10,864 nt of DNA from a virus (lineage: Duplodnaviria > Heunggongvirae > Uroviricota > Caudoviricetes): positions 1 through 10,864 of IMG/VR virus record IMGVR_UViG_2534682158_000020; one strand, 5' to 3'. The notes below the pieces were generated by a model that did no database searches, was not told where the DNA came from, and saw nothing but the letters and a program-made list of their open reading frames with translations. This document shows positions 1-10,864 of this stretch, in pieces. The translations under genes were made by a program, and so were the position numbers. Positions within the stretch are counted from its first letter, which is position 1; every line of letters starts with the position of its first letter.

Positions 1-1242
1 ATGGCACGAAAAACCACCCCACTAACCATTACGGAGATCAAAAACGCACGGCCAGGGGAAAAGGAATACACCCTGCAGGATGGCGGAGGATTATTTCTTC
101 TGGTGAAGCCCTCCGGATCAAAAATCTGGCGTTTTACGTACTACCGTCCGGCAGATAAAAAACGGACTATTATCAGCCTTGGATCGCTGAATGATGTTTC
201 CCTGTCTGATGCCAGAGAGCGACGGAATGAATACAGGTCACTCATAGCAAAGGGAACTGACCCACAGGACCACGAACGCCGGAAACGTGAAGCAGAGAGC
301 CGGAAAAAGGGCAACACGTTCGAAAAAGTTGCCTCGGACTGGTACGAGATGAAAAAAGGCCAGAATCTGGCTTACAACACGATTAAGGATATCTGGCGAT
401 CCATGGAAAAATACGTATTCCCGTACATCGGAAACACGCCAATAGATACCCTCACCGCTCGCCGCTTTGTTGAGATACTCACCCCCATTAAGGCGCGTGG
501 CAACCTGGAAACCCTGAAACGCGTTTTACAGCGCATCAATGAGGTGATGGATTTTGCTGCCAACAGTGGTCTGATTGACATCAACACCGCCGCGAACGTC
601 CGCAAGGCATTCCCCTCACCCACCAAAAAGCACATGCCAACCATCCGACCGGAACAGCTACCACAGCTAATGCACGATTTATCGGTCGCCAGCATAGAAC
701 GGCAAACCAGATTGCTGATTGAGTGGCAACTGCTGACCGTAGCACGCCCAGCCGAAGCAGCCGCCGCACGTTGGGAAGAAATAGATCTCGATGCCGAAAC
801 CTGGACGATTCCAGCCGGACGCATGAAGATGCGCCGTGACCATGTGATCCCCCTTTGCGGTCAGGCTATGGCTGTACTGGAAACCATGAAGCCAATCAGC
901 GCACACAGGGAACACGTTTTTCCCAGCCTTAAAAATCCGATGCTACCAATGAGCAGCCAGACCGCTAACGCTGCATTACGCCGGATGGGATACGCTGGTG
1001 TGCTGGTGTCTCACGGATTACGCGCCATATTCAGTACAGCAGCGAACGAGGAAGGATTCGAGCCGGACGTAATCGAGGCCGCACTCGCACACGTGGACAC
1101 AAACGAGGTAAGGCGGGCATATAACCGAAGTAACTACCTGGAAAAACGTGTAGTACTTATGCGCTGGTGGGGTGAATTTGTGGAAGCCGCAGCAACCGGA
1201 GTGACCATAGCCAGTGGTAAAAGGGGTATCCGTGCGGTGTAA
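1..1242 (+). CDS. int: Tyrosine site-specific integrase, P4/CP4-57 family
   Basis: 413-aa ORF starting at ATG at position 1. N-terminal region (KNARPGEKEYTLQDGGGLFLLVKPSGSKIWRFTYY) resembles the arm-binding domain of P4-type integrases; C-terminal part carries HxxR (HGLRAIFSTAAN) and a catalytic-Tyr region (RAYNRSNYLEKR). Upstream RBS, att and target gene lie outside the window. Confidence 0.9.
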   Translation: MARKTTPLTITEIKNARPGEKEYTLQDGGGLFLLVKPSGSKIWRFTYYRPADKKRTIISLGSLNDVSLSDARERRNEYRSLIAKGTDPQDHERRKREAESRKKGNTFEKVASDWYEMKKGQNLAYNTIKDIWRSMEKYVFPYIGNTPIDTLTARRFVEILTPIKARGNLETLKRVLQRINEVMDFAANSGLIDINTAANVRKAFPSPTKKHMPTIRPEQLPQLMHDLSVASIERQTRLLIEWQLLTVARPAEAAAARWEEIDLDAETWTIPAGRMKMRRDHVIPLCGQAMAVLETMKPISAHREHVFPSLKNPMLPMSSQTANAALRRMGYAGVLVSHGLRAIFSTAANEEGFEPDVIEAALAHVDTNEVRRAYNRSNYLEKRVVLMRWWGEFVEAAATGVTIASGKRGIRAV

Positions 1243-1266
1243 CTGTACAAAAAAACAGCACAACCA

Positions 1267-1295
1267 GTGCAAACCATGCTAAACCATCGTATAAT
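1267..1295 (+). promoter_or_regulatory. Putative sigma70 promoter: perfect -10 TATAAT (1290-1295), weak -35 GTGCAA (1267-1272), 17-bp spacer
   Basis: Hexamers read directly from sequence; would drive rightward transcription into the 1356-1598 region. No experimental support. Confidence 0.3.
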
Positions 1296-1355
1296 CGCCT
1301 ATCTCCTCAACAGACAAGGAAAAACCCGACTCATGAGAAATCGAGATTTATTGAA

Positions 1356-1598
1356 ATGGTCTGGCACGAAAAATCATCCAATGTCTGCGGTGAAGGGCTG
1401 CAACTGGCGTTAATGGCAAATCGTGAATTCTGGTCAACATACGATCCGGAAGACAAATCAACGGCCCCCACGAAACACGAGGTAGTCAGTTTTTTGCGTT
1501 CGCGTGGCGCATCCAAAAATCTGGCTGAAAGCATCGACAAGGTGCTGAGGCCCACCAGCCTTAAATGTGGTGGGCGACCTAAGAAGTGGAAACGGTAA
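1356..1598 (+). CDS. Hypothetical small protein (80 aa); coding status uncertain
   Basis: ORF between a TATAAT -10 element and a strong intrinsic terminator that starts 6 nt after its stop. No convincing Shine-Dalgarno before either in-frame ATG (1356, 1413); no recognisable family. Confidence 0.25.
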   Translation: MVWHEKSSNVCGEGLQLALMANREFWSTYDPEDKSTAPTKHEVVSFLRSRGASKNLAESIDKVLRPTSLKCGGRPKKWKR

Positions 1599-1603
1599 TC
1601 ACA

Positions 1604-1633
1604 ATAGCGGCCCCTTGCGGTCGCTATTTTTTT
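1604..1633 (+). terminator. Rho-independent terminator
   Basis: Stem ATAGCGGCC (1604-1612) pairs with GGTCGCTAT (1619-1627), 9 bp with one G-U, loop CCTTGC, followed by a 7-T run (1627-1633). Confidence 0.7.
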
Positions 1634-1675
1634 GCAGAAAGAAAAGCGTAATCAATGAGATAAAAAACAGTGGGT

Positions 1676-1691
1676 ACCGTTTTAAAACGGT
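1676..1691. promoter_or_regulatory. Perfect 16-bp palindrome ACCGTTTTAAAACGGT upstream of alpA; candidate operator
   Basis: Exact dyad symmetry read from sequence, about 80 bp upstream of the alpA start and flanked by GGTAC on both sides (1673-1677, 1693-1697). Confidence 0.35.
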
Positions 1692-1768
1692 TGGTACTGT
1701 TTTTCCCGCCCTGCCCTGTTTTACCGTATTTATCACCGGAATACGCCGGATTAACGAGGTAAAACATA

Positions 1769-1975
1769 GTGGAAACAATCAGAAAAATTCTTACCCGACA
1801 AGAAGTAAAAAATATTCTGCGCATCAAGGCAGACAGTTCGCTACAGGACATGATCAACGCCGGAAAATTCCCGAAAGGCTTCAAAATTGGTCTGCGTCGT
1901 GTTGGATGGTATGAAGATGAGGTACTGGCCTGGCTGAAAGAACGCCAGGAAGAAGCGCGCGGAACGGCTGCGTAA
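1769..1975 (+). CDS. alpA: AlpA-family DNA-binding regulator (prophage CP4-57 AlpA / P4 Vis-like HTH)
   Basis: 68-aa ORF with GTG start at 1769 preceded by GAGG (1756-1759). Sequence has the AlpA-type pattern (ILR.K...S....I..G.FPKG.KIG.R.VGW.E.EV.AWL). Confidence 0.8.
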   Translation: METIRKILTRQEVKNILRIKADSSLQDMINAGKFPKGFKIGLRRVGWYEDEVLAWLKERQEEARGTAA

Positions 1976-2005
1976 GGGTGTGAGGTGTAACGCAATGAAT
2001 ATAAC

Positions 2006-2037
2006 AAAAAGCGCCCCGTTGCCGGAGCGCTCTTGTG
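2006..2037. terminator. Hairpin between convergent transcription units; candidate bidirectional terminator
   Basis: GCGCCCCG (2011-2018) pairs with CGGAGCGC (2023-2030), 7 of 8 bp, loop TTGC. A5 on the 5' side gives a T5 tail on the - strand; TCTT on the 3' side. Confidence 0.4.
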
Positions 2038-2126
2038 AACAATTAACCTGCTGCGAAAAAATTGGATCAGTGCAGGGGAATTATATCAACCGTGTGACGA
2101 AGCGCCACAATTGCCGGATAACAGGC

Positions 2127-2153
2127 AAAAAAAGACCACCGTGACAGGTGGCC
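2127..2153 (-). terminator. Rho-independent terminator, minus-strand orientation
   Basis: On the - strand: GGCCACC / GGTGGTC stem (7 bp with one G-U), 6-nt loop, followed by TTTTTTT (plus-strand A-run 2127-2133). Confidence 0.45.
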
Positions 2154-2385
2154 CTTCGACACAAGTTACACGTTATCCCCAACGTATGAGCATTGCCAAC
2201 AATGCCACATTTGCGGCTGGTGGGCAAAGCGTAACCGGAAAAAAATTCCGGTGGGGCTATTCCTGCTCTTTGTCCTTGCGTCGCTGGCGACGTTTGATCT
2301 CATGCAGAATTTTTTCAGGTAAGAATCCTGCTGATTTATTTTCTGGTAGCAATGGTTTGTTATCTGTCTGCTTCCTGGTCATACA

Positions 2386-2583
2386 TCAACCTTTTGGTTC
2401 GTTACGTTTCCATACCTGCAATGGGCGAGTTTTCCTGTACTCTTTTAGGAATTTCTCAAGAGCAAAAGCACATGGTGAGAATCTTTCTGACTCATGCTCA
2501 TGCGCTATCTTGCTGCGCCGTCTTTTCCGTGAAGGTGATGTTTTTTCGGTTGATTCGTTGTTGGTCATTCTGTGTACCTGCAT
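2386..2583 (-). CDS. Hypothetical small basic protein (65 aa) downstream of the RHH-like gene; weak call
   Basis: ORF 42 nt after the RHH-like stop on the same strand. No clear Shine-Dalgarno and no recognisable family. Confidence 0.2.
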   Translation of the reverse strand: MQVHRMTNNESTEKTSPSRKRRRSKIAHEHESERFSPCAFALEKFLKEYRKTRPLQVWKRNEPKG

Positions 2584-2625
2584 AGCAATGCGCCGGAGTT
2601 CCTCACACCACGGCGCTGATAGTTA

Positions 2626-2931
2626 TTATTCTGATTCTTTGGCCTTGCGGCGCTGGAGTTCTTCACGTGCGACGGTGACGAGCTGCCCGATCTCCTCGGC
2701 GGCTTTGACTCCGATTTTTTCCACCTGCGCCAGTGCATCGAGCGAAGAAACCAGGGGATTTTCTCCGCTTCCTTCTGCCTGGCGCCTGGCGATCTCCCCG
2801 CGCATGGCGGTTACTATAAATCCGGCGTTGCTTTCGCCGTCCAGTTTTACGGATTCCATGCCTTCAATAACATCATGCGGGATCCGAGCTGTCAGTGATT
2901 GTGATTTTGTGTTTTTTGAACCTGTAGCCAT
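2626..2931 (-). CDS. Putative DNA-binding protein, possibly ribbon-helix-helix (Arc/CopG-like); candidate regulator of the divergent early operon
   Basis: ATG at 2931 with GAGAGG 7 nt upstream on the - strand, 101 aa. N-terminal segment SLTARIPHDVIEGMESV fits a beta-strand then helix RHH pattern. Fold assignment is by eye only. Confidence 0.55.
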   Translation of the reverse strand: MATGSKNTKSQSLTARIPHDVIEGMESVKLDGESNAGFIVTAMRGEIARRQAEGSGENPLVSSLDALAQVEKIGVKAAEEIGQLVTVAREELQRRKAKESE

Positions 2932-3020
2932 CTGTAATCCTCTCAATGAAAGTGTAAGACAATATACACACAAAAAGTATTACATAAAAGCATTGACATG
3001 TAAGCCACCTATAAACAAAG
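2932..3020. promoter_or_regulatory. Divergent promoter region between the RHH-like gene and the early operon leader
   Basis: Perfect -35 TTGACA at 2993-2998 on the + strand, but the nearest TATAAA (3010-3015) is only 11 bp away, so the exact promoter is unresolved. AT-rich and free of credible ORFs. Confidence 0.35.
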
Positions 3021-3290
3021 TTACTTACACCTTATTGGTGCAAGGTTCAGAAACGACGAAACCCGGCAGTGCGCGAACACTAACCGGGCTTCTAACCACC
3101 AGCGATAGAAAGATTATCGAGGTAGCTATGTTAAATCATACCACACACCCGCAAGGGCGGGACTTGCACAACCTGAATAAACCCGATGTAAAAAACCTGT
3201 TGCTCGCCACTGCCAGCCAGGGCTATGATTTATACGCACCAGCAAAATCTGGTGCCGGGATTGGCGTCCTGGTATTTAACGAAGCGCACA

Positions 3291-3313
3291 ACACGCGCCC
3301 TGCGTGTTTTTTT
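3291..3313 (+). terminator. Intrinsic terminator inside the early-operon leader (attenuator-like)
   Basis: Stem ACACGC (3291-3296) / GCGTGT (3302-3307), loop GCCCT, then a 7-T run (3307-3313). Lies about 160 bp upstream of the first early gene. Confidence 0.6.
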
Positions 3314-3475
3314 GTGCCGGATAGTCACACCTTATCAATGGTGGGCTGTATGGGGGCGGAGCAATCCGCGCCGGGTTCTTCGTTAACCGGTTACGCCAAC
3401 CCCGTACAGTCCACCGCCAGCGAAATTGGCGTTTCCTGCGGTGGGTTTATTAACCCTAACGAAGAGGCTGCCAAC

Positions 3476-3664
3476 ATGGCTACAGTCCCTACCCTTGTAC
3501 ATTCCCAAACTGCCTTTATCTGGCGCTTTATCATCTTTGGCGCGTCAGAATCCCAAATCATCCACGTCACCGCATGGACGGAACGCGAAGCGCGTAACCA
3601 TTGCCCGTCCGGTTGTGTCGCTGTATTCGCCGCCCGTATTCGTCAGGGGGTGAGTCATGCATAA
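3476..3664 (+). CDS. Icd/Kil-like small protein (host cell division inhibitor family), first gene of the early operon
   Basis: 62-aa ORF, ATG 3476 with AGAGG 8 nt upstream. Motifs FIWRF ... TEREAR ... VFAARI match my recollection of Icd-like proteins of P4-type elements. Stop overlaps the next start. Confidence 0.55.
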   Translation: MATVPTLVHSQTAFIWRFIIFGASESQIIHVTAWTEREARNHCPSGCVAVFAARIRQGVSHA

Positions 3665-3884
3665 AATACCCTTTGATGTTCTTGTTCATTCTGAAAACGC
3701 ATTAATCCGCGCAAAGGAAATGGACGCATTACTACTTAAGTTAATTGATGTGCCGGAAAGTGGCGATGAATCTGATTCAATGATGTTTTCTGCCGTGCGT
3801 ACGCTATTAACGCCTGTTATTAATGAATTAAATACAGTGATGGCAATTCACGAGAATAATAAAGCGCAGCACACCGGAGAATAA
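3657..3884 (+). CDS. Hypothetical acidic protein (75 aa)
   Basis: ATG 3657 preceded by AGGGGG and overlapping the Icd-like stop (coupled). No family recognised. Confidence 0.6.
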   Translation: MHKIPFDVLVHSENALIRAKEMDALLLKLIDVPESGDESDSMMFSAVRTLLTPVINELNTVMAIHENNKAQHTGE

Positions 3885-3889
3885 AAAAC

Positions 3890-4189
3890 ATGAAAAAGAA
3901 AAATACTGGCGTTAATGCCAGCGGCCCCGCTCGTCCTGAATTTATGAACGGCGATATTTACCGCGATAAATATGGCGGCATGGTAACGATTAAAGGCGTG
4001 GCAGAACGGCGCATCACTTACCGCCGTGATGGCTACGAATATGACTGCGTGATGCCTGTTTATCAGTTCCGGAGTGATTTTTCACTGATACAGGCCACAC
4101 CACGCAGACAGCCCACCAGCTACGCAAAGGCATGGGCAAATATTCAGAAAATGAAAAACATGATTAACGCATTCAGGGGCAAAAAATGA
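3890..4189 (+). CDS. Hypothetical protein (99 aa)
   Basis: ATG 3890 with GGAG upstream; its stop overlaps the primase start (ATGA at 4186-4189). No family recognised. Confidence 0.6.
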   Translation: MKKKNTGVNASGPARPEFMNGDIYRDKYGGMVTIKGVAERRITYRRDGYEYDCVMPVYQFRSDFSLIQATPRRQPTSYAKAWANIQKMKNMINAFRGKK

Positions 4190-5991
4190 AACTGGCACCG
4201 AACTTAAAAAAACAGCCACACGACAAAATGACCGAAGTCATTATTTTTGCGGGTAGTGATGCCTGGGCGCACGCGAAACAATGGCAGGAGCAGGACGGGC
4301 GACTTGCTGGCGACAATGTTCCGCCTGTATGGCTTGGAGACAGCCAGCTTGACGAACTGGCAGACCTGAAAATTATCGACGATGGTCGCTATTGTGTCCG
4401 GCTGTACAAGGCAGGCCACATCAAGCCGTCAAATATTAATGCCATCGGGCAAAAGCTGGCGGTGGCAGGTGTACGGGATGCGAATTATTACCCTGAGGGA
4501 ATGCACAGCCAGAAGCGGGAGAACTGGCACGAATATCTGGAGCGTGAGCGCCAGAATCTTTCTGATGGTCTGGTTATTCAGCTTCCTGTTAAGAAAAAAA
4601 CAGAAGACAGCGCCGCACCACTGGCGCTTAACCAGATGGGAGCAAGCCAGCGCGGCGAAGTTCTCCTGGCACGTTATGGCGGTGAACTGGCAATCAATGC
4701 GGACTCTGACACCGTTCACCACTACAACGGCGTTGTATGGGAGCCGGTACAGGATAAAGAGTTACAGCGGGCTATGGCGCAGATTTTTATTGATGCGGAG
4801 ATCAGTTATTCGCAGAACGCCATCAAATCGGCGGTCGATACAATGAAGTTAAGTTTGCCCGTAATGGGGAATACCGCCCGTAACCTGATTGGATTCAGTA
4901 ACGGTGTTTTTGATACCCGGACAGGCGATTTTCGGGAGCATGACAAAAACGACTGGCTGTTAATTGCCAGTGAATTACCGTTCAGCCCGCCAGCAGAGGG
5001 GGAAACGCTGGCAACGCATGCGCCGAATTTCTGGAAATGGTTGCGCCGTTCGGTGGCTGAGAATGACCGTAAAGCGGATCGCGTACTGGCGGCGTTATTC
5101 ATGGTGCTGGCGAACCGATACGACTGGCAGTTATTTCTTGAGGTAACGGGGCCGGGTGGAAGCGGTAAAAGCGTAATGGCGGAGATTTGCACCATGCTGG
5201 CGGGTAAGGCCAACACGGTATCGGCAAGCATGAAGGCGCTGGAAGATGCCAGGGAACGCGCGTTAGTGGTTGGATTTTCGCTGATTATCATGCCGGATAT
5301 GACCCGCTACGCTGGTGATGGCGCAGGAATTAAGGCCATTACAGGCGGTGACAAGGTGGCAATCGACCCGAAGCATAAAGCCCCCTACTCAACACGCATT
5401 CAGGCGGTCGTGCTGGCGGTGAACAATAACGCCATGTCATTCAGTGACCGCAGCGGGGGGATCTCACGTCGTCGGGTGATATTCAATTTTTCGGAGGTTG
5501 TACCGGAAAACGAACGCGACCCCATGCTGGCAGAAAAAATAGAAGGAGAGCTGGCGGTTGTGATTCGCCACCTGCTTACTCGTTTTTCTGACCAGGACGA
5601 AGCTAAACGCCTGCTGTATGAGCAGCAGAAATCAGAAGAAGCACTGGTGATAAAACGCGAGGGCGATTCGCTGGTGGACTTCTGCGGCTATCTCATGTCG
5701 TCGGTAATGTGTGATGGTCTGTTAGTGGGTAATGCCGAAATTATTCCGTTCAGTCCGCGCAGGTATCTTTATCACGCCTATCTGGCATATATGAGGGCAC
5801 ACGGATTCGGTAAACCTGTAACACTGACGCGCTTCGGTAAAGATATGCCGGGGGCAATGGCGGAATATGGCAGGGAGTATATGAAACGGAAAACGAAGCA
5901 CGGTTTGCGTTCAAATGTGACCCTTACAGAGGATTCAGAAGACTGGATGCCATCATGTGCATCGGTCACAAATGACGATGGAAAAAATTAA
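4186..5991 (+). CDS. Primase-helicase replication initiator, P4 alpha-like (satellite Pri-Rep)
   Basis: 601-aa ORF with AGGGG RBS. Walker A motif GPGGSGKS in the central region; overall resemblance to phage/plasmid primase P4-family proteins; immediately followed by the iteron cluster. Confidence 0.9.
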   Translation: MKLAPNLKKQPHDKMTEVIIFAGSDAWAHAKQWQEQDGRLAGDNVPPVWLGDSQLDELADLKIIDDGRYCVRLYKAGHIKPSNINAIGQKLAVAGVRDANYYPEGMHSQKRENWHEYLERERQNLSDGLVIQLPVKKKTEDSAAPLALNQMGASQRGEVLLARYGGELAINADSDTVHHYNGVVWEPVQDKELQRAMAQIFIDAEISYSQNAIKSAVDTMKLSLPVMGNTARNLIGFSNGVFDTRTGDFREHDKNDWLLIASELPFSPPAEGETLATHAPNFWKWLRRSVAENDRKADRVLAALFMVLANRYDWQLFLEVTGPGGSGKSVMAEICTMLAGKANTVSASMKALEDARERALVVGFSLIIMPDMTRYAGDGAGIKAITGGDKVAIDPKHKAPYSTRIQAVVLAVNNNAMSFSDRSGGISRRRVIFNFSEVVPENERDPMLAEKIEGELAVVIRHLLTRFSDQDEAKRLLYEQQKSEEALVIKREGDSLVDFCGYLMSSVMCDGLLVGNAEIIPFSPRRYLYHAYLAYMRAHGFGKPVTLTRFGKDMPGAMAEYGREYMKRKTKHGLRSNVTLTEDSEDWMPSCASVTNDDGKN

Positions 5992-6003
5992 ACTTATGGA
6001 ATA

Positions 6004-6233
6004 ACTGTTCACCACTGTTCACCATATCATAAATGTCTTTTATATCAGTATATTATAGGGTGAACAGTTATTTATGAACTGTTCACCAAACTATTCACTG
6101 TTCACCTTTTTGATTGTTTATTGAGCTTAAGGGTGAACAGTGGTGAACAGTTGGTGAATAGTTTCTGTGAAACTGTTCACCCCTTAACATCATGAATAAA
6201 AAGGGAAAATCTCAAAAGGTGAACAGGTGAAGG
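6004..6233. repeat. Iteron cluster / candidate replication origin (P4 ori1/crr-like)
   Basis: Nine perfect copies of the octamer TGTTCACC: forward at 6006, 6016, 6080, 6099, 6174; reverse (GGTGAACA) at 6059, 6132, 6142, 6218. Degenerate copies at 6092, 6153, 6226. AT-rich spacer at 6024-6057. Confidence 0.85.
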
Positions 6234-6277
6234 GTTAAAATGCAAAAATTTTATTTTATTGCTGTGAGGTAAAGCCT

Positions 6278-6523
6278 GTGACAACGAAGCACGCAAAAAA
6301 ACCACAATCTCACGCCCTTGATTTGACAGAACACTGGCTGAGGGTGGCGATAAAAATCATCGATCGCAACGCGGGAGAAGGATACGCGAAAGCACATCCT
6401 GAACTGATAAGCGCATTCATGACAACGGCGGCGGCAAACTTTGCCACGCTGACAGAACGGGAGATTGCCGAAGCGGAACAGGTGACAACCATCAATGTTA
6501 AAACCGGAGAGGTGGAATCATGA
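6278..6523 (+). CDS. Hypothetical protein (81 aa), translationally coupled to ssb
   Basis: GTG 6278 with GAGG 8 nt upstream; stop TGA overlaps the ssb ATG (ATGA at 6520-6523). No family recognised. Confidence 0.55.
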   Translation: MTTKHAKKPQSHALDLTEHWLRVAIKIIDRNAGEGYAKAHPELISAFMTTAAANFATLTEREIAEAEQVTTINVKTGEVES

Positions 6524-6942
6524 CAGCACAGATAGCGGCTTACGGGCGGCTGGTGGCTGACCCGCAGTTAAAGACCACCAGCAAGGGCACACAAATGGCG
6601 ATGGCGAGTATGGCGGTTCCCCTGCCGTGCAGCCAGGCAGATGACGGAACGGCGACGATGTGGTTATCCGTCCTGGCGTTTGGCAGACAGGCCGACGCAC
6701 TGGCAAAGCACCAGAAAGGCGAACTGGTGAGCGTGGCGGGTAACATGCAGATAAGCCAGTGGACAGGCCAGAACGGCGAAACGCGGCAGGGCTGGCAGGT
6801 TATCGCAGACAGTGTAATCAGTGCCCGAACGGCGCGACCGGGCGGCAAAAAAGGCCAGCAGGGCCAGGCTACTGACGCGCTGAACAGAGCAAAACAACAG
6901 GCGGGAAATGATGATCCGTACGGGGATGACATACCGTTTTAA
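6520..6942 (+). CDS. ssb: Single-stranded DNA-binding protein
   Basis: 140 aa; OB-fold region aligns by eye with E. coli SSB (LVADPQLKTT..., WLSVLAFGRQADALAKHQKGELVSVAGNMQISQWTGQNGETRQ); Gly/Gln-rich linker; acidic C-terminal tail ending DDIPF. Confidence 0.85.
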   Translation: MTAQIAAYGRLVADPQLKTTSKGTQMAMASMAVPLPCSQADDGTATMWLSVLAFGRQADALAKHQKGELVSVAGNMQISQWTGQNGETRQGWQVIADSVISARTARPGGKKGQQGQATDALNRAKQQAGNDDPYGDDIPF

Positions 6943-6950
6943 GCAACGAG

Positions 6951-6982
6951 TGACAGAAGCCGGAGCAATCCGGCTTCTGTCA
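6951..6982 (+). other. Perfect 14-bp stem with GCAA tetraloop after ssb; no U-tract
   Basis: TGACAGAAGCCGGA (6951-6964) / TCCGGCTTCTGTCA (6969-6982), loop GCAA. Followed by GTTGAGTCC, so not a canonical intrinsic terminator. Confidence 0.5.
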
Positions 6983-7002
6983 GTTGAGTCCGTCACACCA
7001 CG

Positions 7003-7030
7003 CAAAAAAAGGCCGGAATGTTCCGACCCC
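7003..7030 (-). terminator. Rho-independent terminator, minus-strand orientation
   Basis: On the - strand: GGTCGGA / TCCGGCC stem (7 bp with one G-U), loop ACAT, followed by TTTTTTT. On the + strand the stem has a mismatch and no T-tail. Confidence 0.4.
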
Positions 7031-7122
7031 TTCATCACCAAAGAGAATAATTTATGTCTTTGAACTTGTAACGCTGCACAGAATGACACGTAACGCCGGA
7101 TAAATAAACGAAGATTGAAACT

Positions 7123-7151
7123 TTGCACACTATTGCATAGCAATGCATAAA
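7123..7151 (+). promoter_or_regulatory. Putative promoter for the capsid/packaging operon
   Basis: Candidate -35 TTGCAC (7123-7128), 17-bp spacer, -10 CATAAA (7146-7151) with TG at 7144-7145. Overlaps the TGCAT-rich dyad ATTGCATAGCAAT. Weak call. Confidence 0.25.
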
Positions 7152-7213
7152 GATGCCGAACAAGGCAGATGATAAAATTAACGCGACACTTTTACTAAGT
7201 ATCAAGAGGTTAT

Positions 7214-8254
7214 ATGAGTGATTTATATTCGCCAGCTATGTTAATACAGGTTGTTAATGCCGAAGATATTCAATGGCAGATTAATTCTTTATTTATAAAC
7301 CTTTTTTTTAAGCGAGTCGTTACATTTGAGACGCGGGATATTGCGCTTGATATTATTGACGATCCAGACATCCCGATGGCTGCGTTTTGTTCACCTATGG
7401 TTGGTAGCAAAGTCTCACGCGATGAAGGCTACGAATCGAAAGTAATTCGTCCTGGCTACATGAAGCCAAAAAGTAGTATCGACCCAAATAAAATAGCCGT
7501 TCGTCAACCAGGCGTATCACCGGAACAATTCAATGCATATTCATCACGCAGTTTCAAAATAAAGCGAGCGTTAGTAAGACAAGCGCAGGCAATTCGTGCG
7601 CGTATTGAGTGGCTTGCTGTTCAGGCGGTTACAACGGGGAAAAATATCATTGAAGGCGATGGAATTGAACGTTATGAACTGGACTGGAATATAAAACCAC
7701 AAAATATTATCACGCAGTTCGGCGGTACGGAGTGGAGCGGTAGAGATTTATCAACATTTGATCCAAACGATGACATCGAAGAGTACGCAGAAATCAGCGA
7801 AGGTACTACAAATATCATCGTAATGGGCCGCAACGTATGGAAAAAATACCGCGCCTTTAAAGCAGTAAAAGATTGCCTTGATACTCGACGGGGATCTAAT
7901 TCCGTTCTTGAAACGGCCCTGAAAAATCTTGGGGATTCTGTAAGCTTCAAGGGTTACGTTGGCGATGTTGCTATTGTGGTATATAGCGGACGTTATACCG
8001 ACGAGGACGGAACTGAAAGATATTTCCTTGATCCTGATTTGATGGTGCTTGGCAACACATCATTACAGGGCATCGTTGCCTACGGTGGCATTCAGGATCC
8101 TGAGTTAATCAGAATGGGGCTTACTAAAGCCGAACTTGCGCCGAAAAATTACATCGTACCAGGTGATCCGGCTATTGAGTACGTACAAACGCACTCTGCA
8201 CCACAGCCAATACCGGCCCGCATCAATCGTTTTGTTACCGTTCGCATTGGTTAA
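7214..8254 (+). CDS. Major capsid protein, lambda gpE family
   Basis: 346 aa versus 341 for lambda gpE, with long collinear matches to gpE as I recall it: GGTEWS.RD.ST.DP.DDIE.YA, NIIV, FKAVK..LDTRRGSNS.LETA.K.LG..VS.KG..GDVAIVVYSG.Y, MVLGNT, YG.IQD. RBS AGAGG. Confidence 0.92.
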   Translation: MSDLYSPAMLIQVVNAEDIQWQINSLFINLFFKRVVTFETRDIALDIIDDPDIPMAAFCSPMVGSKVSRDEGYESKVIRPGYMKPKSSIDPNKIAVRQPGVSPEQFNAYSSRSFKIKRALVRQAQAIRARIEWLAVQAVTTGKNIIEGDGIERYELDWNIKPQNIITQFGGTEWSGRDLSTFDPNDDIEEYAEISEGTTNIIVMGRNVWKKYRAFKAVKDCLDTRRGSNSVLETALKNLGDSVSFKGYVGDVAIVVYSGRYTDEDGTERYFLDPDLMVLGNTSLQGIVAYGGIQDPELIRMGLTKAELAPKNYIVPGDPAIEYVQTHSAPQPIPARINRFVTVRIG

Positions 8255-8263
8255 GGGGGAGCA

Positions 8264-8605
8264 ATGGCTACTCATTACACTGAACTCATGGCTGGCACTG
8301 AAGCACTGGTTACTACGTTGGGGATATTTTCAGCTAATAAAGGGGTAATTCCTGCATTTACGCCACTGATGCAAGAAGATGCAACTGGTGCACTGGTGGT
8401 ATGGGATGGAACGAGCGCAGGCAAAGCTGTTTATGTTTCCGCTGTACAAATCGATACAGCGACAAAAACGCAGGCTCAGGTTTATAAAACCGGCGTCTTA
8501 AATGTTGATGCTCTGAACTGGCCTGAATCTGTAACACAACTATCAGCAAAAGTTGCTGCGTTTGTTGGCTCAGGTATTTCTGTTCAGCCGCTGGCTCGTG
8601 TGTAA
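8264..8605 (+). CDS. Head decoration protein, lambda gpD family
   Basis: 113 aa versus 110 for lambda gpD; matches gpD motifs TPLM, LV.WDGT..G.AV, YK.G, WPE, AF.G..IS. Starts 10 nt after the capsid gene with a GGGGGAG RBS. Confidence 0.9.
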   Translation: MATHYTELMAGTEALVTTLGIFSANKGVIPAFTPLMQEDATGALVVWDGTSAGKAVYVSAVQIDTATKTQAQVYKTGVLNVDALNWPESVTQLSAKVAAFVGSGISVQPLARV

Positions 8606-8616
8606 AGGGGGATACA

Positions 8617-9000
8617 ATGCAGAATGATTACAATGACCTTAAGCCAATTGCCGAAATGATGTACCCGAATCAAGCTGTAGAGGAATTAAAAGCTATCGCT
8701 GACAAAATGTGTTTAAGCGAGCGCCTTGTTGATATGAATCAGGTGATGGAAATTACAACCCTGAGTCGTCGTACACTGCTAAACCTTGAGGCTAGTGGAG
8801 AGTTCCCGAAGCGTGTGCAGGTTACGGAAGGGCGTAAGGCCTGGTATTTAAGTGAAGTGATCGACTGGATAAATAATATTCCTCGCGCTTCTGAATATTG
8901 CCGCGTACCTGTCCCAAAAAAGCCAGATGCGGCGCTATGCCTCAAGATTGAGCGTGTACGCCGCAATGCACGGGATGGTCGCTATAAGCTGATTGGTTGA
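8617..9000 (+). CDS. AlpA-family HTH protein with an N-terminal extension (127 aa)
   Basis: C-terminal half (MNQVMEITTLSRRTLLNLEASGEFPKRVQVTEGRKAWYLSEVIDWINN) has the AlpA/Vis-type motif. ATG 8617 with GGGG RBS, 12 nt after the gpD-like stop. Confidence 0.7.
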   Translation: MQNDYNDLKPIAEMMYPNQAVEELKAIADKMCLSERLVDMNQVMEITTLSRRTLLNLEASGEFPKRVQVTEGRKAWYLSEVIDWINNIPRASEYCRVPVPKKPDAALCLKIERVRRNARDGRYKLIG

Positions 9001-9029
9001 TGAAATTAGGGCCCGCTCTGGCTGGCGGG

Positions 9030-9140
9030 TCCTTTCCGGCGATCCAGAACGTTACGGGGCGGCTGACGCGCGGGTTTTCGCTATTTATGAGCATTTTAAG
9101 GGGACTGGTGGTGGTTTTGTTGTTCGTTGTATCTGTATGA
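9030..9140. other. Lambda-type cos site (cosQ-cosN-start of cosB)
   Basis: CGCGGGTTTTCGCTATTTATGA (9069-9090) is identical to lambda positions 13-34 as I recall them. Upstream TCCTTTCCGGCGATCC...GTTACG resembles the lambda right end. The inferred 12-nt cohesive-end position reads GGGCGGCTGACG (9057-9068). An R3-like element follows (GGTTTTGTTGTTCGTTG, about 9112-9128). Confidence 0.7.
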
Positions 9141-9216
9141 ATAATAAGAGAAAAGCACAATCAATACACCAACCTGAAACAGTAATTAAGTTGTGGTATC
9201 AATGAAATTGCACCTG

Positions 9217-9744
9217 ATGAACAAAAAAAACATGGCAAAAAGTTGCCGTGTAAGCGCCACTGCGTTCGATAAGTGGGGAGTGATTCCCGTCGAGCGTAAG
9301 GGCCGCGAGGCGTTTTATGATGTCGCCAGTGTAATAGATAATCGGGTTAACAATGCAATCAGCCAGATTACAAACGAAACGGGCGAGATTGATGATGATG
9401 AACTCCTACGAGTCAGGATCAGATTGCTGACAGCACAGGCAGAGGCGCAGGAGCTTAAAAACGAGCGCGAACGCGGCGACGTTATTGATACAGCGTTTTG
9501 TATATACGTGCTTTCAAAATTGGCGAGTCAGATTTCTTCAATCATGGACAGCCTGCCGCTTACCATGCAAAGGCGCTTCCCACAGATGACCCCCGCCATG
9601 CTGGATGGCCTGAAAAAAGAAGTTGTCAGAGCCTGTAACGCATGCACAAAACTTGATGAAAACATCCCGCGAATGCTGTCCGATTATCTGATGGAAACTA
9701 CCGGAAATGTGCCTGATAAGTTTCAGCCGGATAAAGACAAGTAA
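9217..9744 (+). CDS. Terminase small subunit, lambda Nu1 family
   Basis: Collinear with lambda Nu1 as I recall it: N-terminal NKK...FD.WG.IPV..KG.E..YD.A.VI; central LTAQAEAQELKNERERGDVIDTAFCIYVLSKLA..ISSIMDSLPLTMQRRFP; C-terminal KLDENIPRMLSDY. Start is ambiguous (in-frame GTG 9193, ATG 9202, 9217, 9232; none has a strong RBS); 9217 aligns best with the Nu1 N-terminus. Confidence 0.85.
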   Translation: MNKKNMAKSCRVSATAFDKWGVIPVERKGREAFYDVASVIDNRVNNAISQITNETGEIDDDELLRVRIRLLTAQAEAQELKNERERGDVIDTAFCIYVLSKLASQISSIMDSLPLTMQRRFPQMTPAMLDGLKKEVVRACNACTKLDENIPRMLSDYLMETTGNVPDKFQPDKDK

Positions 9745-9980
9745 CGTAGTGCACAATGACCGAAGCCAGTTTACTGACTGGCTTTCAGCGTTGCGCTGGT
9801 GGGCGTTATGCGTCAGTAATGAACAAAAAATAATCGAAATCGACACCGAAAAATAAAACATCAAGTCATATCAATATATTGCATTGGTGGTGATGACGAA
9901 TAAAAATGCAAAAACTAGCCTTTTTCCGCGATGCTCCCGCCCCGTGGCAGGGCACCCCACCAGGAGGACCCGCCATCACT

Positions 9981-10277
9981 ATGGAGGCCATGACCATGAC
10001 CGAGACCGAAGCGCTCGGGATAATCCGCAGTATTACCGGAATCAGCCAGCAGGCTGACGAACAGGCCACGCAGCCGGATACAGTCACCGCTGAAAATTAC
10101 GCGCGTGTGATGGCTGAGGTGATGCGCCGTGACGGTATCGAGCTTAATGGCGTGGATATACGCAACATACGCACCAGAGTTCTGGAGATGTTGTCGTACC
10201 GTCGCCGCGTGCAGATGTACCAGGAGAAAGAAAAAATTACGTACCAGTGGAAGAAGCCGGAGCGGTTACGGCGATAA
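9981..10277 (+). CDS. Hypothetical protein (98 aa, or 93 aa from ATG 9996)
   Basis: ORF downstream of the Nu1-like gene. AGGAGG at 9962-9967 is 13 nt before ATG 9981; GGAGG at 9983-9987 is 8 nt before ATG 9996. No family recognised. Confidence 0.5.
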   Translation: MEAMTMTETEALGIIRSITGISQQADEQATQPDTVTAENYARVMAEVMRRDGIELNGVDIRNIRTRVLEMLSYRRRVQMYQEKEKITYQWKKPERLRR

Positions 10278-10832
10278 ATATTGGTGGGAGGGAGGATCAA
10301 ATCCTTGCAGCCATGGCTGCCCGGGACCGACCGCCGACCCTTGTTCACATCGCCGCAGGTTCGAAAACTTTTTTGGGAAGATGTGCACGGGATTGATAGA
10401 TGAGGTCTATCTATAAAAAATCACAAAATCCGCGCCATTGCTGGATCCGCCAAAAATCCCCCACCTTACGGCAGACAAAGAAAACGCGAATTATGGGCCT
10501 GTTGCAGAGAAAAAAGGTCTCACTAGTTTTGCGCATCCTGGCATCGAGGTTCGTCAGCCTCCCATCAGCAACCAGATAACTAATCTCGCTGGTGGGCATG
10601 ATGCCGATATGGGGACTCCCATAACGGTTTATCCGTGATCATCCACCAGCTTGATGACAGATAACAGGGAGTCATAACGGTTAAAATTGTATACTTTTGC
10701 AGCAAACATTTTTAGCTACACGTTAAGCTATACGATTTTGAGTTTAAATTTTTCAAATTCAATTAAATCAAATGGTTATACGCACTTTTTGAATACTCTC
10801 GTGCACCAAAAAATCCCCAAAAAAAAAACACT

Positions 10833-10864
10833 ACGTTACGTTTACGTTTACGTTTACGTTTACG
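10833..10864. repeat. Tandem hexamer repeat (ACGTTT)n, truncated by the window end
   Basis: ACGTT, then four full ACGTTT units, then ACG, read directly from 10833-10864. Preceded by an A10 tract (10819-10828) and an AT-rich non-coding stretch. Confidence 0.7.

Follow-up and report, generated by a model that had tools for sequence, protein, structure and literature searches.

Phage satellites must obtain heads for their DNA, and a satellite that carries a capsid gene, a decoration gene and a small terminase gene but no portal, protease or large terminase gene raises the question of whose heads those are. The stretch analysed here (the window: 10,864 nucleotides, the whole of positions 1 to 10,864 of IMG/VR record IMGVR_UViG_2534682158_000020) contains such an element. 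A first-pass annotation, made from the sequence letters, had described it as a P4-like chassis joined to a lambda-type late operon, possibly novel, and had suggested that it builds a small capsid shell of its own. Gene content and borders mark the window as an entire Gram-negative phage-inducible chromosomal island (PICI) of the Escherichia coli EcCICFT073 family, ~10.8 kb long and seated beside tRNA-Pro/yejM. Taken as a whole, the data are probably best explained by an island of this family that uses its own small terminase subunit (TerS) and cosB site, enters full-size, helper-built heads as concatemers, and carries its capsid and decoration genes as accessories.

The five components that SatelliteFinder takes as the PICI core (integrase, AlpA-type regulator, primase-replicase, capsid-morphogenesis gene and small terminase) are all present with no forbidden component, the integrase sits at one end of the element, and AlpA lies downstream of it in the same orientation (Table 1). 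The closest relative, an island of E. coli EC43 that is 95.7% identical, lies between tRNA-Pro/yejM and yejO and is bounded by imperfect 26-bp direct repeats, of which window 10709-10734 is the right-hand one. This attachment (att) type is the one published for yejM-site PICIs (an attL/attR repeat beside tRNA-Pro/yejM), and islands at that site with the same kind of repeat are listed in Table S1 of Fillol-Salom 2018 (PMC6092414). Four other islands share the late module; each is 10-11 kb long and directly adjoined by chromosomal genes. Together with EC43, the borders are either yejM/tRNA-Pro and yejO, or abgA and smrA. In the relatives, the 10 kb past attR consist of annotated chromosomal genes. 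Because the island ends at attR inside the window and its relatives are chromosomally bounded, nothing is hidden past position 10864, and in particular no neighbouring portal, protease or large terminase gene completes a head set.

The gaps in the gene content reported in the first-pass annotation were likewise confirmed. None of the window open reading frames (ORFs) scanned against Pfam, PHROGs or NCBIfam matched Sid, Psu, Delta, portal, protease, large terminase (TerL), tail or holin families; none had a Pfam or PHROG match to Delta/Ogr or epsilon, and no window ORF matched a head-tail connector or adaptor. The length of ~10.8 kb falls in the 10-15 kb range expected of a PICI. Portal, protease and TerL genes are also absent from all five related E. 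coli islands.

The late half of the island begins with homologues of the lambda major capsid protein gpE and decoration protein gpD, both predicted earlier and both intact ORFs with profile matches far beyond chance. The capsid homologue covers positions 9-327 of the 329 in Pfam Phage_cap_E (E=1.5e-40) and matches the major head protein family phrog_29 (1.5e-88). Its Protein Data Bank (PDB) matches include lambda gpE (7VI9, 7.4e-76, residues 11-345 aligned to 7-340) and 3BQW (1.5e-121), which is labelled there merely as a putative prophage capsid protein and whose printed sequence matches the capsid gene of the CFT073 island. Amino acid identity is 42.6% to lambda gpE, 54-55% to EcCICFT073 c1499 and 84% to the capsid of the helper-embedded satellites described below; the best phage capsid in our phage collection reaches only ~42%. 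The decoration homologue is 54% identical to c1500 and 40% identical to gpD. Across islands, at dS up to 1.5, dN/dS was 0.07-0.09 for the capsid gene and 0.06-0.09 for the decoration gene; both were intact in every copy examined, and in 395 of the 396 E. coli genomes with a match the capsid-decoration query is covered to at least 80%. As judged by these ratios, capsid and decoration are real proteins, inherited as a pair and under strong purifying selection. That the pair is matched suggests real incorporation into shells, and the occurrence of the same module in satellites that interrupt the helper gene E points to a context that would select for a spare capsid gene. Most likely, the two products are accessory or substitute lambda-type shell subunits that are redundant with helper gpE and gpD in laboratory tests.

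Gaps of 9 and 11 nt separate genes in the late module, which is ordered E, D, AlpA, cos, TerS, and a Shine-Dalgarno sequence precedes each of E, D and the second AlpA-family gene (AlpA2). The tight coupling and good ribosome-binding sites that had been read as marks of a functional module are therefore real, and the same order is fixed in hundreds of genomes. The capsid, decoration and TerS genes are intact, show no truncation or inactivation, and were each recovered by profile searches of the expected family. Because dN/dS is low (as given above for capsid and decoration, and 0.11-0.2 for TerS) and gene order is fixed, the late module is, as far as sequence can tell, an evolved functional unit and not prophage debris. 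AlpA2, also anticipated from the letters, matches Phage_AlpA at residues 36-85 and PDB 8C3T (1.1e-09), has a dN/dS of ~0.08-0.09 in divergent comparisons, and is unrelated to the 137-aa protein at the equivalent position of EcCICFT073. For the last gene, the mechanical ORF is 123 aa long and begins at 9906; we assigned its start to the ATG at 9996 from homologues and a GGAGG Shine-Dalgarno sequence. This 93-aa gene is the late gene most widely shared between islands of the Rpp type (see below) and those of the TerS type. A promoter and terminator scan of 6900-10864 returned sites no more numerous than in shuffled sequence.

A lambda-like cos and a Nu1-like TerS had been predicted for the right part of this module, and both were found. 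Compared with the actual lambda and N15 records, 9026-9097 is 85% identical to the lambda cosQ-cosN block, and it is 85-88% identical to the cos of lambda-like phages. Its position is that of EcCICFT073 cos1; a search of the window for a second site like EcCICFT073 cos2 left this as the only cos. While cosQ and cosN are common to lambda-like phages, the adjoining cosB is island-specific: it is unlike both lambda R3/R2/R1 and EcCICFT073 cos1 and resembles N15 GAGGTTGTTGTTTAA. No repeated R elements were found in it, which fits an N15-like single-site cosB. Among near-identical islands and phages, compared at 9057-9068 and the equivalent positions of records L001, L007-L009, L011, L012, L015 and L016, the predicted 12-nt end varies in its right half (GGGCGGCTGACG, GGGCGGCAGACG, GGGCGGCGACCT and GGGCGTCAGGCG) between conserved flanks; phage PhiR46_1 has the variant GGGCGGAAGGCG.

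The TerS gene begins 134 nt after cosN, probably at the ATG at 9202, as annotated in relatives, rather than at the GTG at 9193. Its product is 48% identical to N15 gp1 and 41% identical to lambda Nu1 over the whole length, sharing with them the blocks TAFC..VLS, PL..QRRFP and LDExIP..L..Y, the last being part of the C-terminal LDExIPxxLxxY block. The alignment spans the DNA-binding, oligomerisation and C-terminal TerL-binding regions (regions assigned by alignment; a domain map of lambda Nu1 that includes the TerL-binding C-terminal region is given in PMC9026076), and the N-terminal domain has the indel pattern of N15 relative to lambda. Identity to the TerS of EcCIATCC25922, an island at the same att site, is 84%. 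The cosB and the TerS N-terminus co-vary: an N15-like DNA-binding domain accompanies a GGTGGTGGTTTTGTTGTT cosB, and a lambda-type cosB accompanies a lambda-type Nu1 N-terminus in the helper-embedded satellites L015 and L016. This exchange of cosB and DNA-binding domain as one cassette supports a specific recognition of island cosB by island TerS, which we would predict from the alignments.

The best-studied relative packages itself differently. EcCICFT073 has no TerS; its RppA binds the helper TerS and re-aims it to the island cos (PMC6739421). Proteins of the Rpp type are ~144-153 aa long and have a TerS-like DNA-binding domain and no TerL-binding tail. The two islands share the order int, alpA, Icd region, DUF4222, primase, iteron origin, small ORF, single-stranded DNA-binding protein gene, capsid, decoration, one variable gene, cos, packaging-specificity gene and 93-aa gene, with the cosQ/cosN block equally placed; their capsids are 55%, their decoration proteins 54% and their last gene products 74% identical. 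EcCICFT073 differs in carrying RppA (144 aa) where the window has full-length TerS, in the 137-aa protein at the AlpA2 position, in having two cos sites rather than one, with a cosN identical to that of lambda, and in its integrase and att site (roxA-phoQ region). We considered whether the window TerS is itself an Rpp and rejected this, as it has no BLASTP similarity to RppA and possesses the C-terminal region that Rpp lacks; hhalign gave a weak match between the two in the N-terminal helix-turn-helix (E=0.031). AlpA2 and the last gene were also rejected as hidden Rpp candidates after comparison. RppA (L002 17660-18094) has no BLASTP similarity to any late-module protein compared. There was no PDB match to RppC, a weak null given that the lambda Nu1 domain (1J9I) was missed too.

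From these parts the following cycle may be proposed. By homology with EcCICFT073, the one island of the family in which helper induction and frequent transfer in helper-derived particles have been demonstrated, a lambda/N15-type cos helper phage would switch on alpA, and the island would excise and replicate from its iteron origin with its own primase-replicase. The island TerS would then bind island cosB and recruit a gpA-type helper TerL through the conserved C-terminal domain, and helper TerL would nick the lambda-like cosN. Most likely, as in EcCICFT073, concatemers of ~4 units would enter full-size proheads built by the helper.

Several points weigh against this reconstruction. The predicted cohesive end differs from that of lambda at 5 positions and from that of N15 at 3, and no phage in our collection shares it. 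Helper redundancy alone does not explain such strong purifying selection on capsid and decoration in chromosomally seated islands. Co-assembly of the island capsid with helper gpE, Nu3 scaffold and portal is hypothetical, the capsid being ~42% identical at best to any phage capsid in the collection. The EcCICFT073 capsid is 55% identical to that of the window, and its null phenotypes may not transfer. Finally, for TerS-type E. coli PICIs the helper, the induction, the contact of TerS with TerL and the size of the capsid are predictions.

The explanation that competes best is the one originally put forward, in which island capsid and decoration form a small private shell, single 10.8 kb units are packaged, and portal, scaffold, protease, TerL and tail are borrowed. 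Its size argument, that 11 kb cannot fill a lambda head, is not compelling because multimers fit: four island units amount to 43.2 kb, 89% of the lambda genome and 93% of that of N15. The accepted lambda packaging range spans ~13 kb, so that some multiple of every unit below 13 kb falls within it. Support comes from the capsid-decoration pair itself, co-conserved, strongly constrained and ~42% identical to its nearest phage homologues, and from the presence in the window island of a TerS that EcCICFT073 does not have. Precedents exist in PmCI172, with small heads and a capsid homologue (PMC6092414), and in SaPIbov5, whose capsid homologue Ccm is reported to change head size (PMC8569155). Volume scaling from lambda would also accommodate such shells, a T=3 head holding ~13.6 kb (one unit, 79% fill) and a T=4 head ~20.9 kb (two units, 103% fill). 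Against this, the only relative that has been put to the test, EcCICFT073, packaged phage-sized DNA throughout, i.e. concatemers (PMC6092414). Deletion of its capsid gene c1499 or decoration gene c1500 changed neither interference with lambda nor transfer by resident prophages (PMC6092414), and lambda was not blocked when either gene was expressed by itself (PMC6739421). Reviews since then describe E. coli PICIs as using large capsids. By analogy with EcCICFT073, its phage-sized DNA and null deletions argue against the small-capsid reading, which we consider unlikely. Virome contigs are no guide here, since monomer and concatemer packaging would give the same single-unit assembly.

A broader version of the same idea is about as improbable: with their natural helper, capsid and decoration would form satellite-specific shells on helper portal, scaffold and protease, filled by way of the island's own TerS and cosB. 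Such shells could be small T=3 or T=4 heads with room for one or two 10.8 kb units, or they could be full-size, with the island proteins in place of gpE and gpD. If this were so, TerS-type E. coli PICIs would be an intermediate between classical PICIs and capsid-forming PICIs (cf-PICIs), and the null phenotypes of EcCICFT073 with lambda and phage 80 would reflect the helper or redundancy in the assay.

Slightly less probable again is that capsid and decoration serve mainly in interference or defence, as dominant-negative subunits that would disrupt head formation in rival gpE-type phages. Interference with phages is common among PICIs, as is defence cargo, the helper-embedded relatives hold HEPN and DUF262 or DUF2971 genes, and selection on the pair is strong despite its dispensability for transfer. 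Yet c1499 or c1500 expressed from pBAD left lambda plaque formation undiminished, their deletion did not relieve interference, and a decoy has no obvious use for a matched decoration protein.

The two remaining alternatives are both highly improbable. A P4-family satellite exploiting a P2-like helper is suggested by the integrase, AlpA, C4/CI-type RNA, Icd-like ORF and D5-type primase, all of which are P4-like, as the first-pass annotation stated for all but the RNA; P4 likewise has a cos site and a size near 11 kb. The P4-like genes and RNA are common to PICIs and do not discriminate between families, and the chassis they compose is that of an EcCICFT073-family PICI. Nothing in the window matches Sid, Psu, Delta or epsilon, its cos and TerS are of lambda/N15 type and not of P2 type, and P4, which has P2-type cos, resizes P2 heads by Sid, has Psu and Delta as further late functions, and is devoid of capsid, decoration and TerS genes; the published comparison sets E. 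coli PICIs apart from P4 (PMC6092414). A decayed lambdoid prophage that kept E, D and Nu1 by chance would account for three genes from lambda head and packaging families, but is already refuted by the selection and synteny data (intact copies throughout, dN/dS around 0.1, the order E, D, AlpA, cos, TerS in hundreds of genomes), by the element's own integrase, att sites, origin, primase and precise chromosomal borders, and by the lack of any phage gene more than 49% identical to capsid, decoration or TerS.

The satellite architecture is already known and common, since yejM-site PICIs were catalogued in 2018, the SatelliteFinder core includes capsid (its 'capsidPE' component probably being Phage_cap_E) and TerS, and 21 of the 29 reference Gram-negative PICIs are reported to have a capsid gene. 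In the SatelliteFinder survey 375 elements had all five core components, and 97% of these five-component PICIs were in E. coli. The suggestion of novelty does not survive: EcCIATCC25922, in the 2018 list, already combines capsid, decoration and TerS genes at this att site. It and the EcCIED1a.1 group share with the window the att type, the same cosB, an 83% identical integrase and the absence of portal, protease and TerL; they differ in their CFT073-type capsid (56% identical to that of the window), in the 137-aa protein that replaces AlpA2 and in the cosN GGGCGGCGACCT, and are, as far as could be found, catalogued only.

Other satellites are more distant. As in pac-type Staphylococcus aureus pathogenicity islands (SaPIs), a satellite-encoded TerS would redirect helper TerL to satellite DNA, and like SaPIbov5 with its Ccm, the island encodes a capsid homologue. 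The sequences are, however, unrelated, the SaPI hosts are Gram-positive, SaPI TerS directs headful (pac) packaging, and Ccm demonstrably alters head shape and size, an effect not known for any E. coli PICI capsid. The cf-PICIs, represented by EcCIEDL933, have the same left half (int, alpA, rep) and also encode capsid-related genes, but possess a full head and packaging set (HK97-type capsid, protease, portal, connectors, HNH, TerS and TerL) and form their own small capsids. Neither the window nor the complete related islands have a portal, prohead protease, head-tail connectors or TerL of their own, so that of the known architectures the window agrees with the Gram-negative PICIs and has neither the cf-PICI head set nor the P4-like psu-delta-sid/epsilon genes.

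Among 5,426 complete E. coli genomes, 228 carried the TerS gene and 396 the window-type capsid-decoration pair. The weaker capsid-decoration matches include the published helper-embedded satellites, which interrupt gene E of lambda-like prophages and for which a backup capsid role has been proposed (bioRxiv 10.1101/2022.07.18.500453). Such 11capE-type satellites have a window-type capsid (84% amino acid identity), decoration (96.5%) and AlpA2 (98.4%), ordered as in the window and with cos next, but lie inside gene E and have a lambda-type cosB from cosN onward. The lambda-type Nu1 gene that they carry is cut short in L015 and interrupted by a stop codon in L016, and defence-like cargo takes the place of TerS and the 93-aa gene (HEPN and DUF262 at 11286-13002 of L015; DUF2971 at 11686-12444 of L016). 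In a different combination, the island at 2167-7778 of L011 has the same late module (capsid, decoration, AlpA2, TerS and 93-aa gene) with a different integrase, an abgA-smrA att site and a RepA-type helicase in place of the D5-type primase, which shows exchange of early and late island halves. The best phage capsid matches were ~20 kb records named 'vB_EcoM-569R10', which we considered as gpE-type satellites and rejected, as they are partial myovirus prophages with lambda-like head genes. One of these (L014, ON470596.1), a 19.9 kb record submitted as a complete 'Escherichia phage vB_EcoM-569R10' genome, begins within a yecA-like host gene and represents part of a myovirus-type prophage, neither a complete phage nor a satellite.

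As a discovery the element adds little, satellites of this design having been described since 2018 and being detected automatically by SatelliteFinder; islands of this type are present in several percent of complete E. coli genomes. Its interest lies in the capsid and decoration genes, which most Gram-negative PICIs carry and which are under very strong selection here, yet dispensable in the one island tested. One conserved capsid-decoration module is combined with three interchangeable cassettes: Rpp; an N15-like TerS with its own cosB; or a helper lambda-type cosB with a decaying TerS. These form a natural series for how cos satellites choose between re-aiming a helper TerS and bringing their own.

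Table 1. Features of the island in the window, with strand and supporting matches.
Feature	Positions	Strand	Support
Integrase	1..1242	+	Pfam Phage_integrase 9.6e-27 and Arm-DNA-bind_3; 83% identical to EcCIATCC25922 integrase, same yejM/tRNA-Pro site
AlpA regulator/excisionase, PICI activator	1769..1975	+	Pfam Phage_AlpA 4.6e-08
YlcI/YnfO-family protein, variable early region	2626..2973	-	NCBIfam NF041551 8.6e-20; phrog_6522 2.7e-58
isrK-like small RNA (3236-3312) and C4/CI-type antisense RNA (3334-3421)	3236..3421	+	Rfam RF01394, RF01695
Icd-like cell-division-inhibitor ORF, C-terminal part of a long open frame	3515..3664	+	NCBIfam phage_ICD_like 6.4e-15
DUF4222 protein, coupled to primase gene	3890..4189	+	Pfam DUF4222 1.1e-24; kept in all related islands
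Primase/replicase with D5_N, DUF5906 helicase core and Pox_D5	4186..5991	+	Pfam; phrog_864 DNA primase 1.8e-190
Replication origin, nine TGTTCACC iterons on both strands, just 3' of primase gene	6006..6225		Repeat count
Conserved 81-aa protein (phrog_1231), no assigned function	6278..6523	+	phrog_1231 3.2e-50
Single-stranded DNA-binding protein	6520..6942	+	Pfam SSB 6.9e-16
Major capsid homologue (lambda gpE / Phage_cap_E), full length, 346 aa	7214..8254	+	Pfam, PHROG and PDB matches
Head decoration homologue (lambda gpD / HDPD), 113 aa	8264..8605	+	Pfam HDPD 2.6e-16; PDB gpD-family chains
AlpA2, second AlpA-family winged-helix protein with N- and C-terminal extensions	8617..9000	+	Phage_AlpA 1e-09; phrog_2790 4e-49
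cos: cosQ-like block, predicted 12-nt cohesive end GGGCGGCTGACG (9057-9068), conserved right flank	9026..9097	+	Lambda cos similarity
Island-specific cosB including GGTGGTGGTTTTGTTGTTCG	9098..9201	+	Conserved in all six TerS-type islands
TerS, full-length Nu1/N15 type, 180 aa	9202..9744	+	Pfam Phage_Nu1 2.8e-24; phrog_57 4.6e-53
Conserved 93-aa last late-module gene (phrog_1561), no assigned function	9996..10277	+	74% identical to EcCICFT073 last gene
attR core TTTTTAGCTACACGTTAAGCTATACG	10709..10734		Right island end; imperfect direct repeat of the tRNA-Pro-to-int sequence in EC43 and three other strains

The early half of the island holds the functions for integration, regulation and replication. 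The TGTTCACC iterons noted earlier beside the primase-helicase gene are well above chance: the motif occurs 11 times in the window (0.33 expected), a count attained in none of 200 shuffles, and nine of the occurrences fall in 6006-6225, a position that agrees with the origin of Gram-negative PICIs (PMC6092414). Two lone copies lie outside the origin, at 5418-5425 inside the primase gene and at 7388-7395 inside the capsid gene. An Rfam match to plant MIR821 at 6032-6211 was rejected as a spurious product of the iteron repeats (40.8 bits against a gathering score of 249).

Control of PICIs is described in the literature as acting through AlpA, which functions in EcCICFT073 induction (PMC6092414). 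The window also carries two RNAs just upstream of the Icd-like ORF, with scores of 80 bits for RF01394 (gathering score 50) and 76.4 bits for RF01695 (gathering score 45), and a c4-a1b1 target match was seen below threshold within the RNA region 3223-3421; the isrK-like and C4/CI-type RNAs thus form a P4/P1-style RNA immunity region within a PICI. The Icd-like gene, called as a leader gene in the first-pass annotation, was supported by a phage_ICD_like profile match to residues 469-512 of the frame 2111-3664. The only segment not collinear with the EC43 island is 2230-3860, where identity is 68-90% in short blocks compared with 94-96% elsewhere; it aligns in part with EcCICFT073, pointing to a mosaic regulatory or accessory segment. 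Beyond the island, in the upstream flank of yejO, the window closes at 10827-10864 with a hexanucleotide repeat (ACGTTT, ~5 copies) preceded by an A-rich run, the sole part of the flank that does not align with EC43.

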